Positions 1 to 63,093 of a stretch of DNA of 64,000 nucleotides are shown piece after piece (position 1 is the stretch's first letter; every line of letters starts with the position of its first letter). Source of the DNA: Escherichia coli O127:H6 str. E2348/69 (GTDB taxonomy: Bacteria > Pseudomonadota > Gammaproteobacteria > Enterobacterales > Enterobacteriaceae). The stretch lies in assembly GCF_000026545.1 (NCBI RefSeq), contig NC_011601.1. The stretch is one strand, 5' to 3'. Under the pieces are notes generated by a model. That model was not told the DNA's origin. It saw only the letters and a program-made list of their open reading frames with translations, and made no database searches. The position numbers were made by a program, and so were the translations under genes.

Positions 1-1300
1 ATTCAGCCTGGCCTGGCAGATTCTGTTTGCTATGGTGCTGGGCATTCTCCTGGGAAGCTACCTGCACTACCATAGCGACAGCCGCGACTGGCTGGTCGTC
101 AATTTGCTCTCTCCGGCGGGTGATATCTTCATCCATCTGATCAAAATGATTGTTGTGCCGATTGTGATCTCCACGCTGGTGGTGGGTATCGCGGGTGTTG
201 GTGATGCCAAACAGCTCGGGCGTATTGGTGCGAAAACCATTATCTACTTCGAGGTGATCACCACCGTCGCCATCATTTTGGGGATCACTCTGGCGAACGT
301 CTTCCAGCCTGGTGCCGGGGTGGATATGTCGCAGCTGGCGACCGTCGATATCTCGAAATATCAGAGCACTACGGAAGCGGTACAAAGCAGTTCCCACGGC
401 ATTATGGGCACGATTTTGTCGCTGGTGCCGACGAACATCGTGGCGTCGATGGCGAAAGGCGAAATGCTGCCGATCATCTTCTTCTCGGTGCTGTTTGGTC
501 TGGGGCTTTCATCCCTGCCCGCGACGCATCGTGAACCGCTGGTGACCGTTTTCCGCTCCATCTCTGAAACCATGTTTAAAGTGACTCACATGGTGATGCG
601 TTATGCGCCGGTGGGTGTGTTTGCGCTGATTGCGGTGACGGTGGCTAACTTTGGTTTCTCTTCTCTGTGGCCACTGGCGAAACTGGTGCTGTTGGTGCAT
701 TTCGCCATTCTGTTCTTCGCGCTGGTAGTGCTGGGAATTGTGGCGCGCCTGTGCGGGTTAAGTGTCTGGATCCTGATTCGTATTCTGAAAGATGAGCTGA
801 TTCTGGCGTACTCCACTGCCAGCTCTGAAAGCGTGCTGCCGCGAATTATTGAGAAGATGGAAGCCTACGGAGCACCGGCGTCGATCACCAGTTTCGTGGT
901 GCCGACCGGTTACTCTTTTAACCTTGATGGTTCGACGCTGTATCAAAGTATTGCCGCTATTTTCATCGCGCAGTTGTATGGCATTGACCTGTCCATCTGG
1001 CAGGAAATCATTCTGGTGCTGACGCTGATGGTGACCTCGAAAGGGATTGCTGGCGTGCCGGGCGTGTCGTTTGTGGTGTTGCTGGCAACGCTGGGCAGCG
1101 TAGGGATCCCGCTGGAAGGTCTGGCGTTTATTGCCGGTGTTGACCGTATCCTCGACATGGCGCGTACTGCGCTGAACGTGGTGGGTAATGCGCTGGCGGT
1201 GCTGGTGATTGCCAAGTGGGAACACAAATTTGACCGTAAGAAAGCGCTGGCTTATGAGCGTGAAGTGCTGGGCAAATTTGATAAAACTGCGGATCAGTAA
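1..1300 (+). CDS. gltP: glutamate/aspartate:proton symporter, 5' end truncated by window edge
   Basis: Reading frame open from position 2; translation matches the DAACS-family transporter GltP; track ORF 32..1300 is the internal part. Confidence 0.93.
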   Translation, partial: FSLAWQILFAMVLGILLGSYLHYHSDSRDWLVVNLLSPAGDIFIHLIKMIVVPIVISTLVVGIAGVGDAKQLGRIGAKTIIYFEVITTVAIILGITLANVFQPGAGVDMSQLATVDISKYQSTTEAVQSSSHGIMGTILSLVPTNIVASMAKGEMLPIIFFSVLFGLGLSSLPATHREPLVTVFRSISETMFKVTHMVMRYAPVGVFALIAVTVANFGFSSLWPLAKLVLLVHFAILFFALVVLGIVARLCGLSVWILIRILKDELILAYSTASSESVLPRIIEKMEAYGAPASITSFVVPTGYSFNLDGSTLYQSIAAIFIAQLYGIDLSIWQEIILVLTLMVTSKGIAGVPGVSFVVLLATLGSVGIPLEGLAFIAGVDRILDMARTALNVVGNALAVLVIAKWEHKFDRKKALAYEREVLGKFDKTADQ

Positions 1301-1309
1301 CTGAAGATT

Positions 1310-1328
1310 GCCGGGGTTATCCCCCGGC
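1310..1328 (+). terminator. GC-rich hairpin just after gltP stop (gccgggg-ttat-ccccggc), candidate terminator
   Basis: Inverted repeat read directly; the downstream T-tract is weak. Confidence 0.4.
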
Positions 1329-1337
1329 AATGTGTTG

Positions 1338-1376
1338 ATGCCTGATGCGACGCTTGCCGCGTTTTATCAGGCCTAC
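1338..1376. repeat. REP (repetitive extragenic palindrome) unit
   Basis: gcctgatgcgacgc...ttatcaggcctac motif typical of E. coli REP elements. Confidence 0.6.
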
Positions 1377-1377
1377 C

Positions 1378-2067
1378 TTAACCGTTAGTTAATTTTTCAA
1401 ACTCTTCACACCCGGTATCAAACCCTTCCATACAGCTCAGATTCAACCAGTGCAGCGCCTTTTGTTTGTTCTTCTCGATAAAACCCTCTTCACCGTTTAA
1501 GAACATCATTCCCGCCCAGTATTCGGAATAACCGGTTCGGGAAATCGCGGAGCTACGTTTGAAATACCAGGTTGCTTTGTCATCGTCGGCCTTAATGCCC
1601 ACGCCGTTGGCGTAAATCAAACCAAGCAGCATTTGGGCATCGACGGCAGAGTCGTTCTCCAGATCTTCCGAGGCGTTTTCTAACAGCGAAATCGCCTTTG
1701 GATAATCCGGTTTACCCGCTTGCGTATTTACCAGAATATGCGCCAGCGTTACTTCACCTTCTTTACTGCCCGCTTGCGCTGCTTTCTCGGCAAGCACTTT
1801 TGCTTGTGGATAGTCCAGACTGACCGGATTGGTGATTTTGATCTGCGCCAACAGCGCGCAGGCATCGGCATCACCGCTGTCGGCGGCTTTCTGTGCCCAA
1901 TATTCGGCTTTGCTCAAATCGCCGGAGCTAAACCAGCTGTCGGCAAGAAAATATTGTGCGCGTCGGTCTCCGGCCTCTGCTGCCTTTAAATACTGGCTGC
2001 CAGGCTCGGAGTCGTTCGCGTGGGCAAAGAATGTCAAAAATAACATCAAAGTGATAATTTTTTTCAT
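1378..2067 (-). CDS. yjcO: Sel1/TPR-like repeat protein with signal peptide
   Basis: Track ORF 1378..2121 begins at TTG; ATG at codon 19 (MKKIITLMLFLTFFAHA) gives a signal peptide followed by Sel1-like repeats. Confidence 0.85.
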   Translation of the reverse strand: MKKIITLMLFLTFFAHANDSEPGSQYLKAAEAGDRRAQYFLADSWFSSGDLSKAEYWAQKAADSGDADACALLAQIKITNPVSLDYPQAKVLAEKAAQAGSKEGEVTLAHILVNTQAGKPDYPKAISLLENASEDLENDSAVDAQMLLGLIYANGVGIKADDDKATWYFKRSSAISRTGYSEYWAGMMFLNGEEGFIEKNKQKALHWLNLSCMEGFDTGCEEFEKLTNG

Positions 2068-7622: not shown

Positions 7623-9770
7623 TTACGCCAGTGCCGCTTCGCGCAGGCGAGTTTTCAACTTGTTGTACTCGTCAATCACGTACTGCTCGGCGGCGCGCTG
7701 ATCGGCGATCGGCTCGACGCGCACGGCGCAGTATTTGTATTCCGGCGTTTTCGTAATCGGGCTTAAGTTTTCGGTAACCAGCTCGTTACAGGCACCAATC
7801 CACCACTGGTAGGTCATGTAAATCGCCCCTTTGTTCGGACGATCGCTGACCTGCGCACGGGTGATAATTTTGCCTTTACGCGAGTGCACCCAAACCAATG
7901 CCTCATCTTCAATACCCAGACGTTTGGCGTCTTCGGTATTGATTTGTGCGTAGCCAGGTTCATCAGCCAGCGCCGCCAGTGCCGCACAGTTACCGGTCAT
8001 CGAACGGCAAGAGTAGTGACCAACTTCACGCACCGTTGACAGTACCATCGGGTACTCGTCGGTGAGTTTGTCGATTGGCGCGACCCAGTCGCAGGTGAAG
8101 AACTGCGCCAGACCGTTCGGGGTATCAAACTTCTCTTTAAACAGATAAGAAGTCCCCTGATCGGCATCTGAAGTATCCCGGCAAGGCCACTGAATGAAGC
8201 CCAGTTCGCCCATTTTTTCGTAAGTCGCACCGTAGAAATCCGGGCACAGATGACGCAACTCATCCCAGATCTCCTGGGTGTTGTTGTAGTGCATCGGATA
8301 ACCCATACGGGTGGCGATTTCACTGATAATCTGCCAGTCCGTTTTCAGATCCCATTTCGGTTCAACCGCTTTGAAGAAACGCTGGAAGCCACGGTCAGCC
8401 GCAGTAAACACGCCTTCATGCTCGCCCCACGACGTTGACGGTAAAATAACATCCGCCGCCGACGCGGTTTTGGTCATAAAGATGTCCTGAACGATGACCA
8501 GTTCCAGATCTTCAAAGGCTTTACGTACTGCCGACAGCTCCGCGTCAGTTTGCAGCGGATCTTCGCCCATAATGTACGCGGCACGCACTTCGCCATGCGC
8601 TGCGCGGTGCGGCAGCTCGCTGATGCGATAGCCGGTATGAGCAGGCAGGCTTTCCACGCCCCAGGCTTTGGCGAATTTCTCGCGGTTAGCCGGATCTTTC
8701 ACGTACTGGTATCCCGGATACGTATCCGGCAGCGCGCCCATATCGCAGGCACCCTGCACGTTGTTCTGACCACGAACCGGGTTTACACCCGCATGCGGCT
8801 TACCGAGGTTACCAGTCAGCATCGCGAGGCTGGTCAGAGAACGCACGGTTTCCACGCCCTGGTAGAACTGGGTTACACCCATGCCCCACAGGATGGCGGC
8901 GCTTTTCGCCTGGGCATACATCCGCGCCGCCTGACGAATCTCACTGGCGCTGACGCCGGTGATATCTTCAACCGACTCCGGCGTGTAGCCTTCAACGATT
9001 TTACGATACTCTTCAAAGCCTTCTGTACGGGAAGCGACGAAAGCTTTGTCGTACAGGTTTTCTTCAATAATGACATGGCCCATCGCATTCAACAGCGCGA
9101 TGTTCGAGCCGTTTTTCAGTGCAATGTGCATGTCAGCAATGCGCGCGGTTTCAATTTTGCGCGGATCGCAGACGATAATTTTCGCCCCGTTACGTTTAGC
9201 GTTAATTACGTGATTCGCCACGATTGGGTGGGAATCCGCCGGGTTGTACCCGAAAACGAACACTAAATCGGTATTATCAATTTCGTTAATAGCATTGCTC
9301 ATTGCGCCATTACCGACCGATTGGTGCAGACCTGCAACCGATGGGCCGTGTCAGACACGAGCGCAGCAGTCAACGTTATTGGTACCAATAACGGCGCGCG
9401 CAAATTTTTGCATTACATAGTTGGTTTCGTTACCCGTACCACGCGAGGAGCCGGTCGTCTGGATGGCATCCGGACCGTACTTCTCTTTGATGGCGCTCAG
9501 GCGCTCGGCAACGTAATTCAGTGCCTCATCCCAGGAAACAGGTTCGAGTTTGCCGCCACGCTGGCGACGGATCATGGGGGTTTTCAGGCGCGGGGTCAGG
9601 ATCTGGGTATCGTTAATGAAATCCCAGCCATAATAACCCTTCAGACACAGGGTACCCTGGTTGGTTTTCCCCTGCGCTGCCTCCGCCCGGACGATTTTGC
9701 CGTTATCGACGACCAGGTTGATTTTGCAACCTGATGCGCAATAGGGGCAAACCGTGACGACTTTTTTCAT
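7623..9770 (-). CDS. fdhF: Formate dehydrogenase H, selenocysteine-containing molybdoenzyme
   Basis: Track ORFs 9351..9770 and 7623..9302 are in the same frame across a single TGA; 716 codons total; N-terminal Cys cluster CPYCASGCK. Confidence 0.95.
9305..9353 (-). other. In-frame UGA selenocysteine codon (9351..9353) with downstream SECIS region
   Basis: TGA flanked by ...DCCARV and HGPSVAGLHQSVGNG...; bacterial SECIS elements lie immediately 3' of the UGA. Confidence 0.85.
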
Positions 9771-33526: not shown

Positions 33527-33614
33527 TAGGCCGGATAAGGTGCTTGCACCGCATCCGGCATCAACGTCTGCACATTGTCGGATGCGACGCCGGGGCGTCT
33601 TATCCGACCTACGA
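33527..33614. repeat. Pair of REP units between phnD and phnE
   Basis: gtaggccggataagg...gcatccggca and gtcggatgcgacgcc...ttatccgacctac. Confidence 0.7.
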
Positions 33615-36085: not shown

Positions 36086-36165
36086 AGCCTGATAAGACGC
36101 GGTCAGCGTCGCATCAGGCAGTCGCCACCGTTGCCGGATGCGGCGCGAGCGCCTTATCCGGCCTA
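36086..36165. repeat. Pair of REP units between yjdN and yjdM
   Basis: gcctgataagacgc...gcatcaggc and gccggatgcggcgc...ccttatccggcctac. Confidence 0.7.
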
Positions 36166-41828: not shown

Positions 41829-41838
41829 CAATTGAACT

Positions 41839-41855
41839 CTTAAGGTTCACTTAAT
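41839..41855 (+). promoter_or_regulatory. PmrA (BasR) box upstream of pmrR
   Basis: CTTAAG-N5-CTTAAT direct repeat, ~45 bp upstream of pmrR ATG. Confidence 0.65.
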
Positions 41856-41899
41856 CTCTGACGCGCATACTCTCCTCCAGGTTAACGGAGGAGAGTGCA

Positions 41900-41989
41900 A
41901 TGAAAAACCGTGTTTATGAAAGTTTAACTACCGTGTTCAGCGTGCTGGTGGTCAGCAGCTTTCTTTATATCTGGTTTGCCACGTACTGA
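41900..41989 (+). CDS. pmrR: Small membrane peptide PmrR (29 aa)
   Basis: ATG preceded by GGAGGAG; MKNRVYESLTTVFSVLVVSSFLYIWFATY is a single TM helix; not in the ORF track (<60 aa). Confidence 0.75.
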   Translation: MKNRVYESLTTVFSVLVVSSFLYIWFATY

Positions 41990-43056
41990 TCTTTTTTCAG
42001 CCGTATACAGGCCCGCGTGCCGGAAGTCTCTTGCCGGTTTTGCAGGAAAAAATGCCCGTGATGCAACTGTGTAATGCGGCTGACAATACTTAACCCCAGA
42101 CCAATCCCGCCATAACGGCTGTCCATTCGTACAAACGCTTTACTCAACTCCCCGCATTTACTCTCATCAATACCCGGTCCTTCATCTTCAACGGCCATGA
42201 CCGCTCCGCCATCTTCTTGCAGCTTAATCATAATGTTGCTGCCTTGTGGGCTATAACGATGGGCGTTTTCTACCAGGTTTCGCAATAACATCCGCAGCAG
42301 GGTTGCATCACCCTGAACGGTGATGTCGGCGGCGCTCTCTGGCAATAGCAGGGTTTGCTGGCGCTGGTCGAGCATGGTACTAAGTTCGTCATACGAGGGG
42401 AGAATGACATCTTCCAGCAGTTTTACATGTTGATAATTACCGGAAGAAAATGACTGTCCGGCACGCGCCAGTTGCAGCAGCTGGGAGACGCTCTCCATCA
42501 TCTGATCAAGTCGTGCCACTAACGGTGCTACATCAATGTGATGCGTTTTCGCCAGCAGTTCCAGATGCAAACGCACCCCCGCCAGTGGCGTTCGCAGTTC
42601 GTGCGCGACGTCAGCGGTAAACAACCTTTCGTTATCCAGCGTGCTGGTCAGGCGACTGACCAGATCGTTTAACGCCGAAACCACCGCATCGATTTCGAGG
42701 GTGGCGCTATGAATGGCAATGGGCGTTAAGTTGTCGGCGGTGCGCGCTTCCAGCTCTTTTTGCAGCTCCGCCAGCGGTCGGGTGATGCGGCGTACCGCCT
42801 GATAGCAGATAAATAGCGTCAGGCTAACCATAAAGACGCCGGGGACAATCAGGCTGGCGACCGCCTCGCGGATCTCACGCATGATGTGGCGATCGTTGTT
42901 GCGATTGTCGCGTAACGCCTGCTCAAACAGCTGAATCTGCTCGGTACTTTCATGCCATAGCCAGAAGACGCTGATCAGCTCGAATACCAGCAGAATAGCC
43001 CCAATGGTCAATATCAGCCGTTGACGTAGTGATATTGGTTGGCGTAAAAAGCGCAT
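41965..43056 (-). CDS. basS: Sensor histidine kinase BasS/PmrB
   Basis: HAMP, HisKA (H-box AHELRTP) and ATPase domains; start taken 3 codons inside the track ORF. Confidence 0.9.
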   Translation of the reverse strand: MRFLRQPISLRQRLILTIGAILLVFELISVFWLWHESTEQIQLFEQALRDNRNNDRHIMREIREAVASLIVPGVFMVSLTLFICYQAVRRITRPLAELQKELEARTADNLTPIAIHSATLEIDAVVSALNDLVSRLTSTLDNERLFTADVAHELRTPLAGVRLHLELLAKTHHIDVAPLVARLDQMMESVSQLLQLARAGQSFSSGNYQHVKLLEDVILPSYDELSTMLDQRQQTLLLPESAADITVQGDATLLRMLLRNLVENAHRYSPQGSNIMIKLQEDGGAVMAVEDEGPGIDESKCGELSKAFVRMDSRYGGIGLGLSIVSRITQLHHGHFFLQNRQETSGTRACIRLKKDQYVANQI

Positions 43057-60223: not shown

Positions 60224-60496
60224 ATGGAAATACGCGAAGGCCACAATAAATTTTACATTAATGACGAACAGGGCAAGCAAATCGCTGAAATTGTCTTTGT
60301 GCCGACCGGAGAGAATTTAGCGATTATCGAACATACCGATGTCGATGAAAGCCTGAAAGGGCAGGGGATTGGTAAACAGCTGGTTGCGAAAGTCGTGGAA
60401 AAAATGCGTCGGGAAAAACGAAAAATTATCCCACTATGCCCATTTGCGAAACACGAATTTGATAAAACACGGGAGTATGATGATATTCGCAGTTGA
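60224..60496 (+). CDS. yjdJ: Small GNAT-like acetyltransferase-fold protein
   Basis: 90 aa. Confidence 0.8.
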
Positions 60497-60723
60497 TGGG
60501 AGAGTACAGAGTCGCGATATTTTTCATGCTCTCCGCGGTGTGATGCAGGAGAGCATCTGAAGGGTAGGGGATGCACAAAGAATGGTCAGAGAGAGCGTTT
60601 TTTTGTCCCAAGTCATCCCCTTTACTGAGCAAAAAAAAAAGAATATCTCCTATATGAGAATCATCATTCGGGGTTAATAAGTTTTGCGTCCCCAGAGCGT
60701 TCAATATTGATAGGAGTCATATT

Positions 60724-61020
60724 ATGGAAGGTAAAAACAAGTTCAATACTTATGTTGTTTCTTTTGATTATCCATCATCTTATTCCTCAGTGTTCTTAAG
60801 GTTAAGATCATTGATGTATGATATGAATTTCTCCTCTATCGTGGCTGATGAATATGGGATACCACGACAATTGAATGAAAACTCCTTCGCAATAACGACA
60901 TCGTTAGCCGCAAGTGAAATCGAAGATTTAATCAGGCTTAAATGCTTAGACTTACCGGATATTGACTTTGACCTCAACATTATGACCGTTGATGACTATT
61001 TCCGTCAGTTTTACAAGTAG
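60724..61020 (+). CDS. ghoS: Type V antitoxin, RNA endonuclease GhoS
   Basis: 98 aa ORF immediately upstream of the ghoT small ORF. Confidence 0.85.
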   Translation: MEGKNKFNTYVVSFDYPSSYSSVFLRLRSLMYDMNFSSIVADEYGIPRQLNENSFAITTSLAASEIEDLIRLKCLDLPDIDFDLNIMTVDDYFRQFYK

Positions 61021-61047
61021 CCAGGAAGGATAAGAAGAACATAAAAA

Positions 61048-61221
61048 ATGGCACTATTCTCTAAAATATTAATTTTTTATGTGATTGGTGTGAACATATC
61101 CTTTGTCATTATCTGGTTTATCTCACATGAGAAAACACATATTCGTTTACTTAGTGCATTCCTGGTCGGAATAACCTGGCCAATGAGTTTACCTGTGGCA
61201 TTACTTTTTTCTCTCTTTTAG
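61048..61221 (+). CDS. ghoT: Small membrane toxin GhoT (57 aa)
   Basis: Hand-translated ORF MALFSKILIFYVIGVNISFVIIWFISHEKTHIRLLSAFLVGITWPMSLPVALLFSLF; two predicted TM helices; below the track's size cutoff. Confidence 0.8.
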   Translation: MALFSKILIFYVIGVNISFVIIWFISHEKTHIRLLSAFLVGITWPMSLPVALLFSLF

Positions 61222-61296
61222 GAGTTGTAGTTGAGTGGACCCGCTGGTTATCGTGAAACGAAGCGTCTCTCCTCAAAACTGGATTTGCGGAACGAC

Positions 61297-61326
61297 GAAC
61301 GAAGCAGCCGCCTGACTGCTTCGTTC
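61297..61326. terminator. 11-bp stem hairpin between convergent ghoT and lysU, candidate bidirectional terminator
   Basis: gaacgaagcag ... ctgcttcgttc, followed by a moderately U-rich tract on the plus strand. Confidence 0.5.
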
Positions 61327-61339
61327 ATTTAAGTGAAAT

Positions 61340-62857
61340 TTATTTCTGTGGGCGCATCGCCGGGAAGAGAATAACGTCGCGAATAGTATGGCTGTTAGTA
61401 AACAGCATAATCATTCGGTCGATACCAATACCCAGACCAGCGGTTGGCGGCAGACCATATTCCAGCGCAGTCACGTAATCTTCGTCATAGAACATGGCTT
61501 CGTCGTCACCTGCAGCTTTAGCGTTAACCTGTTCCTGGAAACGTTCAGCCTGATCTTCTGCATCGTTTAATTCGCTAAAACCATTACCGATTTCACGACC
61601 ACCGATGAAGAATTCAAAACGGTCGGTGATTTCCGGGTTAACATCATTACGGCGCGCCAGCGGGGACACTTCTGCTGGATATTCCGTAATAAAGGTTGGC
61701 TGAATCAGATGTGCTTCTGCCACTTCATCAAAGATCTCCGTGACAATACGTCCCAGCCCCCAGCTTTTCTCTACCATAATACCAATAGATTCAGCTAATG
61801 CTTTAGCGGCATCAAAATTATCCAGATCCGCCATATCGGTTTCTGGACGATATTTTTTGATTGCTTCGCGCATGGTGAGTTTTTCAAACGGTTTGCCGAA
61901 ATCAAACACATGCTCGCCATAAGTGACTTTAGTGGTACCAAGAACCTCTTGTGCCAGGGTGCGGAACAGGGACTCCGTCAGTTCAATCAAATCGTGGTAA
62001 TCCGCATACGCCATGTAGAGTTCCATCATTGTGAACTCAGGATTATGGCGAACAGAAATACCTTCATTACGGAAGTTACGGTTGATTTCGAATACCCGTT
62101 CAAAACCGCCTACAACCAGACGTTTCAGATACAGCTCCGGCGCGATACGCAGGTACATATCTAAATCCAGAGCGTTATGATGGGTTATAAACGGGCGAGC
62201 AGATGCCCCACCTGGAATTACCTGCATCATCGGGGTTTCTACTTCCATAAAGCCGCGCGCGACCATGAACTGGCGGATAGCGGCCAGAATTTTTGAACGG
62301 ACAACAAACGTTTGACGGGATTTATCGTTAGCGATGAGGTCCAGATAACGTTGACGATAACGGACTTCCTGATCCTGCAGACCATGGAATTTATCTGGTA
62401 AAGGACGTAGTGCTTTAGTCAGCAGGCGCAGCTCAGTACAGTGAATGGAAAGCGCACCCGTTTGCGTCTTAAACAGCGTACCGCGGGCACCGATAATGTC
62501 ACCCAGATCCCATTTTTTAAACTGATCGTTATAAACACCTTCTGGCAGGCTATCTCTTGCAACGTACAGTTGAATACGGCCACCGACATCCTGCAACGTT
62601 ACAAAGGAGGCTTTCCCCATAATACGACGGGTCATCATTCGGCCAGCAACCGAGACTTCAATGTTTAAGGATTCCAGTTCCTGGTTATCCTTCGCATCAA
62701 ACTCTTCGTGCAACTGGTCAGAGGTATGGTCGCGGCGAAAATCATTGGGAAACGCCACACCTTGCTGACGTAGTGCCGCCAGTTTTTCGCGGCGATTTCT
62801 CAGTTCATCGTTAAAATCAATAGCCTCATTGGCTCCCCGTGTTTCTCGTTCAGACAT
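61340..62857 (-). CDS. lysU: Lysyl-tRNA synthetase, inducible isoform
   Basis: Start at [13 protein letters not shown] (track extends 9 codons); class II aaRS. Confidence 0.93.
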
Positions 62858-63093
62858 TTTGGTTCCTCTAAATCCAGCTTTCAATTTAGCGTAGATAAAG
62901 AGACAGATCGGTACACTGTATTATCTGCCTCGACTATTAATAACTCAGTTTATCTTATCGAAACTAACGCTTACCTCAAGTTGATATCACTAATAAATAA
63001 CCATCAAAATGGTTTAAATGACTTATTAATCTCGATTTACTAGTGTGATAAACTGAAAGTTAATTTATTCATAACCAATTGTTTTTAAGACAG

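Follow-up and report, generated by a model that had tools for sequence, protein, structure and literature searches.

The GhoT/GhoS (YjdO/YjdK) pair of Escherichia coli K-12 was reportedly described by Wang et al. in 2012 (Nat Chem Biol 8:855) as a type V toxin-antitoxin system. GhoT damages the membrane, giving rise to lysed 'ghost' cells and lower ATP (PMC4344625, PMC6273597). GhoS neutralizes it as an RNase, cutting ghoT mRNA within A/U-rich regions (PMC4344625, PMC3997798); the antitoxin remains stable during stress and has no part in regulating transcription of the two genes (PMC4344625, PMC6273597, PMC3997798). Residue Arg28 is important in GhoS, and overproduction of the protein lowers around 20 purine/pyrimidine transcripts (PMC4010927). 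Another RNase, MqsR, is specific for GCU and acts preferentially on the ghoS portion of the two-gene transcript, destroying it and enriching ghoT, which is said to be one of just 14 GCU-free mRNAs in E. coli (PMC4905990, PMC5408214).

Two further groups of toxins invite comparison. OrtT (YdcX) resembles GhoT in belonging to Pfam family PF10753 and in being a small two-helix peptide that damages membranes (PMC4344625); the two are about 63% identical, based on tblastn matches to annotated ortT. In contrast to the GhoST pair, ortT has no adjacent antitoxin gene, its product is not neutralized by GhoS, and its mRNA holds two GCU sites (PMC4344625). Type I systems (Hok/Sok, TisB/IstR-1, Ibs/Sib) likewise combine a short hydrophobic inner-membrane toxin with control at the toxin mRNA; they differ in using an antisense RNA as antitoxin, where the present locus has an upstream gene, on the strand of the toxin gene, for a protein RNase.

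We analyzed a window of 64,000 nucleotides of the chromosome of E. coli O127:H6 str. E2348/69 (contig NC_011601.1), meaning by the window the whole of this stretch. With high confidence, we identify the region set out below as the ghoS-ghoT operon of the E. coli chromosome, the founding example of a type V toxin-antitoxin system; its mechanism would be that given in the K-12 literature.

60724..61020, + strand: ghoS, encoding an antitoxin endoribonuclease of 98 residues and Cas2-like fold
61021..61047, + strand: ghoS-ghoT spacer of 27 nt, CCAGGAAGGATAAGAAGAACATAAAAA, the same in K-12
61048..61221, + strand: ghoT, 57-residue hydrophobic membrane toxin with two predicted helices

Open reading frame calling placed ATG starts on both genes, and the positions, lengths, and 27-nt gap given by the first-pass annotation proved exact. 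The default cut-off of the calling tool is 60 residues and ghoT was listed after this minimum (min_aa) was lowered to 30, consistent with the explanation offered earlier that a frame of 57 residues had been left off the ORF track by its size. For a genome scan, the value of the case is that a small gene was called correctly though hidden by a 60-aa filter. The antitoxin gene comes first and the toxin gene second, on one strand and with a short spacer between them, which is likewise the order in K-12.

Profile searches assigned the 98-residue protein to the Pfam family GhoS (PF11080; E-value 6.1e-41, score 138.8 bits, cut-off 21) and the 57-residue protein to Toxin_GhoT_OrtT (PF10753; E-value 8.9e-26). 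NCBIfam has no HMM for either GhoS or GhoT and was uninformative either way. Alignment to reference proteins confirmed the original naming of the pair: GhoS is identical at 98/98 residues to the chain of PDB entry 2LLZ (deposited as YjdK, with the title 'GhoS (YjdK) monomer'), and GhoT is identical at 57/57 residues to K-12 GhoT (b4559). These E-values and identities place the assignment well beyond chance. E2348/69 and K-12 share both proteins, the 27-nt spacer, the gene order, yjdJ upstream and convergent lysU downstream, as well as three GCU sites in ghoS and none in ghoT. The two strains differ by six base substitutions in the genes, all synonymous, of which ghoS has four and ghoT two (both in the Leu48 codon), and by a small number of flanking base changes. 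In addition, E2348/69 lacks mqsRA at its K-12 position, such that the published upstream trigger is missing.

Short open reading frames arise readily in a region as AT-rich as this one (about 34-36% GC) and another lineage does have decaying ghoS alleles, both of which could be taken to mean that the two frames are decayed or accidental and without function. We regard such a reading as vanishingly improbable. Both frames are full length, their products match those of K-12, and their differences are synonymous only; the Pfam E-values are very strong and the pair is kept in 98% of E. coli genomes. Together, full-length identity, E-values, and retention refute it. Both genes of the operon are intact and encode products identical to the characterized K-12 proteins, and every sequence- and structure-level feature of GhoST membership that we examined was found. 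The call of a ghoST pair was therefore correct but ordinary: the pair at this locus is already known, and its recognition adds nothing new on the system itself.

The genomic context is also that of K-12. RefSeq annotates ghoS and ghoT of E2348/69 between yjdJ, whose product is a GNAT acetyltransferase, and a gene for lysine-tRNA ligase that runs convergently; dcuS/dcuR/dcuB lie farther upstream and dtpC/cadA farther downstream. The order in K-12 MG1655 is dcuS, yjdI, yjdJ, ghoS (b4128), ghoT (b4559), lysU, dtpC, and cadA; the neighborhood dcuS-yjdI-yjdJ-ghoS-ghoT-lysU is canonical. The lysyl-tRNA synthetase gene (61340..62884, - strand) is the heat-inducible lysU in K-12 and is named lysS by PGAP in E2348/69; in the mechanical ORF list its frame begins at an upstream TTG and spans 514 residues, the annotated product being 505 residues long.

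The structure model of GhoS follows the order beta-alpha-beta-beta-alpha-beta and has as its best matches 2LLZ and then Cas2 proteins; this is a Cas2-like ferredoxin fold. Residue 28 of the translated frame is the catalytic arginine, which is kept in an ortholog of 77% identity and is lysine instead in a decaying allele (P0042-type). Sequence identity of GhoS to Cas2 and VapD endoribonucleases amounts to just about 10-16%. GhoS further differs from Cas2 in that no cas genes or CRISPR array lie nearby; it is reported to be monomeric and to act as an antitoxin on a single mRNA, rather than within an integrase complex. For GhoT, hydropathy analysis (GRAVY 1.5) delimited hydrophobic segments at approximately residues 3-26 and 34-57, separated by a polar loop (H27-E-K-T-H-I-R33), and a single-sequence AlphaFold2 model placed helices at residues 2-28 and 30-56 (pLDDT 80.6). 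Both predictions agree with the earlier description of a two-helix protein, and GhoT is predicted to be a small peptide with two transmembrane helices. An orphan toxin would have no antitoxin gene adjoining it. Here, intact ghoS lies 27 nt upstream of ghoT, hence this frame, which is 100% identical to GhoT and stands directly behind ghoS, is not OrtT.

Identity, fold, architecture, context, and GCU asymmetry were observed directly at this locus; RNA cleavage, toxicity, and the MqsR cascade we infer from the literature on the identical K-12 proteins. Following published K-12 work, ghoS and ghoT would be co-transcribed. Production of GhoT, as a 57-residue two-helix peptide of the inner membrane, would lead to membrane damage, a fall in ATP, and 'ghost' cells. 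GhoS, as a stable endoribonuclease with the Cas2 fold, would neither bind the toxin nor repress the promoter; its cuts would instead fall in A/U-rich regions of the ghoT portion of the transcript, leaving the toxin untranslated. The release step in K-12 would fall to MqsR, which by cutting at GCU would destroy the ghoS half of the transcript and spare ghoT. The base composition of ghoT is 66% A+T, and an A/T-run scan of the gene yielded one stretch at which GhoS may cut.

61062..61080, + strand: 19 nt of uninterrupted A/U close to the start of ghoT, a candidate GhoS cleavage region

Several elements that may govern expression of the operon were located around and between the two genes.

60497..60723, + strand: gap of 227 nt between the genes yjdJ and ghoS, from stop codon to start codon
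60712..60716, + strand: good Shine-Dalgarno of ghoS (AGGAG), read from the sequence, 7 nt before the ATG
61032..61038, + strand: weak purine-rich ribosome-binding stretch of ghoT (AAGAAGA), in the spacer
61042..61044, + strand: in-frame TAA in the spacer
61297..61326, + strand: GC-rich hairpin between convergent ghoT and lysU, found by RNA folding

The gap between yjdJ and ghoS presumably holds the ghoST promoter and 5' UTR. A sigma-70 consensus scan gave no convincing site within these 227 nt, and its number of matches was not above that in shuffled sequences. Within the presumed promoter or 5' UTR lies a length-variable homopolymer (60631..60640), which is A10 here versus A8 in K-12. Some E. 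coli carry IS1B inside the same gap (locus L003, 1851..2548, NZ_CP195483.1; also NZ_CP124374.1), at a point corresponding to about 60500..60670 of the window and with the end of the transposase gene 53 nt before the ghoS start; such an insertion would displace the native ghoST promoter. At the spacer position of the ribosome-binding stretch of ghoT, orthologs have AAGAGGA or AAGAGGG. The two genes share a reading frame, their starts being 324 nt apart, and read-through of the ghoS TAG would end at the in-frame TAA (61042..61044); a GhoS-GhoT read-through fusion in the window was rejected on this ground. Downstream of ghoT, the hairpin forms a stem of 10-11 bp followed by AUUUAAG on the + strand and a stem of 15 bp on the - strand (dG -23.8 kcal/mol), and is probably a shared or bidirectional terminator. 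A scan for consensus terminators reported none for the region; this hairpin was missed because its T-run is imperfect.

The size and hydrophobicity of GhoT are like those of type I toxins, and promoter-like matches occur on the - strand both within ghoT (TTCACA-17-TAATAT, 61094..61066) and within ghoS (61008..60979). These features would fit control of ghoT by an antisense sRNA transcribed from the opposite strand within the gene, in place of or in addition to GhoS. Such matches are, however, not in excess (4, versus 3.2 +/- 2.2 in shuffled sequences), no Rfam family matches 60400..61400, a conserved protein antitoxin adjoins the toxin gene, and neutralization by GhoS is published (PMC4344625). 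We therefore consider type I control of ghoT very unlikely and retain GhoS as its antitoxin. Elsewhere in the window, Rfam matched an STnc630 sRNA (41831..41996, +), two copies of naRNA4 (36086..36163, -; 33529..33609, +), a REP-derived nucleoid-associated RNA, and SECIS_2 (9304..9358, -), a selenocysteine insertion element; fdhF is annotated in the SECIS_2 part of the E2348/69 chromosome.

Of 5426 complete E. coli genomes, 5318 carry the 498-nt pair (5272 with coverage of at least 80%), almost always as a single chromosomal copy. The first-pass annotation had held that automated annotation easily misses the system. This no longer applies: RefSeq/PGAP names both genes in 39/39 full-length records, sampled evenly over the identity ranking, and in diverged loci of public assemblies, too, the 57-aa gene was picked up by the gene callers. 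The late tag b4559 beside that of ghoS (b4128) suggests that ghoT was overlooked originally in K-12. A search of 5.8 billion proteins returned 47 GhoS clusters, for which the source names given are all Escherichia or Shigella; the most diverged full-length GhoS found was 77% identical, in a search that needs shared 5-residue words and hence may miss more distant relatives.

We also considered whether ghoST is a plasmid addiction system or another mobile toxin-antitoxin module. GhoS was found on nine 'plasmid' records, all from E. coli and all non-mobilizable, of which eight are 0.37-4.9 Mb and one is 94 kb. Among the PLSDB records holding ghoST, NZ_OL790696.1, NZ_CP134663.1, and NZ_CP141089.1 are chromosome-sized (4.8-4.9 Mb), and the 94-kb record NZ_CP048307.1 (p009_C) carries the block dcuB-dcuRS-yjdIJ-ghoST-lysU-dtpC-cadA. 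These four records are likely mislabeled or misassembled chromosomal DNA. As the plasmid matches are confined to non-mobilizable E. coli records, including the 94-kb one with its chromosomal dcuB to cadA context, we rejected a mobile addiction module. Toxins of the GhoT/OrtT family occur, mostly without GhoS, on 95 plasmid records, 78 of them from Pantoea; on Pantoea agglomerans megaplasmids (e.g., NZ_CP143412.1, 451686..451856) the toxin is about 56% identical to GhoT. No GhoS homologs were found on non-Escherichia plasmids in the plasmid collection. With 78 Pantoea plasmid records of the toxin and no non-Escherichia GhoS, the toxin family is much broader than that of the RNase antitoxin.

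Some diverged forms of the locus lie outside the canonical neighborhood. Two of them (L010, 4001..4497, GCA_902838365.1; L011, 3914..4410, GCA_902847105.1) are ghoST orthologs with a GhoS of 77% identity. They retain the antitoxin-first architecture, with 98 residues, a spacer of 26 nt, and 57 residues, and differ in context, having decarboxylase and amino-acid permease genes on both sides. This type of locus was not found in complete RefSeq E. coli genomes, including as a second ghoST copy. The locus of E. coli M056 (L012, 4001..4498, ADIK01000037.1) agrees with K-12 in what its 3' ghoS half, spacer, and ghoT encode. Its 5' ghoS half has diverged, leaving GhoS 84% identical overall, and in place of yjdJ the upstream genes encode a decarboxylase and a permease; the arrangement has the appearance of a recombination junction within ghoS.

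A further type occurs on AT-rich metagenome/Logan contigs (L007, approximately 960..1457; L008, approximately 365..862; L009, approximately 890..1387), where the locus is roughly 60-65% identical. It has an in-frame TAA at the expected ghoS start, no ATG before Met31, and lysine in place of Arg28. The ghoS stop has become TAT, and the frame continues into a GhoT-like gene that is intact and has a ribosome-binding site of its own; a homopolymer frameshift is present in one contig. The corresponding cluster has 91 member sequences. This type reads as a decaying antitoxin beside an intact toxin, and loss of the antitoxin in this manner may be one way in which orphan toxins like OrtT come about. 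Two apparent natural GhoS-GhoT fusions were rejected: P0003 is a single contig in which extra substitutions in the GhoT part suggest error-prone assembly, and P0042 is a gene call from Met31 of a ghoS without start and stop codons.

The published link to MqsR depends on an uneven distribution of GCU over the transcript, and by pattern count ghoS has three such sites, the spacer and ghoT none.

60844, 60936, and 60944 (stretch 60844..60946), + strand: three 5'-GCU (MqsR-type) sites of ghoS

When codons were resampled with the window's own usage, the probability of no GCU in ghoT was 0.027, which is nominally unusual; among real 174-nt coding windows within this window, 2.9% are GCT-free. The diverged orthologs do contain the triplet in ghoT, with two sites in each of L010 and L011 and one in the GhoT part of the P0042-type locus. 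These sequences weaken the case for GCU avoidance as a core property of ghoT.

In E2348/69 (NZ_CP059840.2, 731056..733254; L006, 31057..33255), ygiV is followed after 108 nt by ygiS, and the segment of approximately 930 nt that holds mqsR-mqsA between these genes in K-12 is cleanly absent; this applies to the usual site, a diverged copy elsewhere being possible. The MqsR step is therefore probably inoperative in E2348/69, in which case another signal must shift the balance of GhoS and ghoT. By megablast, K-12 mqsRA was detectable in 2298 of 5426 complete E. coli genomes (42%), versus 5318 (98%) for ghoST, so the published trigger cannot be the general one. For the mqsRA-less B2 strain NRG857c, ghoT has been reported to respond to acid and macrophage conditions, and its authors stated that another regulator must exist (PMC7232551); independence from MqsR was thus already hinted at for a B2 strain. 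We give even chances to the proposal that the cascade from MqsR to GhoST is a peculiarity of K-12-like lineages rather than core control, and that E2348/69 and most E. coli would release or limit GhoT independently of MqsR.

A rival reading accepts the genes as ghoS and ghoT by identity and disputes that the toxin-antitoxin pair with its MqsR cascade, as known from overexpression in K-12, is the native role here. GhoS would serve chiefly as a small RNase regulating other targets, and GhoT would be a membrane peptide held within tight limits and controlled by an MqsR-independent signal. The missing mqsRA of E2348/69 and its limited occurrence among complete genomes relative to ghoST are in keeping with this, as are the GCU sites of diverged ghoT orthologs, the purine/pyrimidine transcripts lowered by GhoS overproduction (PMC4010927), the acid and macrophage response of ghoT in NRG857c (PMC7232551), and a locus fixed in the chromosome and not on mobile elements. 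Yet the proteins are identical to a K-12 pair for which toxicity and specific neutralization were shown, and the two-gene arrangement with ghoS in front persists down to 77% identity and among other neighboring genes, a conservation that speaks for a functional link between ghoS and ghoT. On balance we think a different native role unlikely, and we keep to the reading of the locus as a toxin-antitoxin operon.

For specialists in toxin-antitoxin systems, the points of possible interest are the absence of mqsRA here and from most E. coli genomes, the lineage-restricted avoidance of GCU in ghoT, and the decaying ghoS beside an intact ghoT. They question the generality of the textbook example of one toxin-antitoxin system controlling another; the absence of mqsRA had been raised before for another strain. 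If control of GhoT is indeed independent of MqsR in most E. coli, lineages with a decaying ghoS and an intact ghoT would illustrate the origin of orphan toxins such as OrtT.
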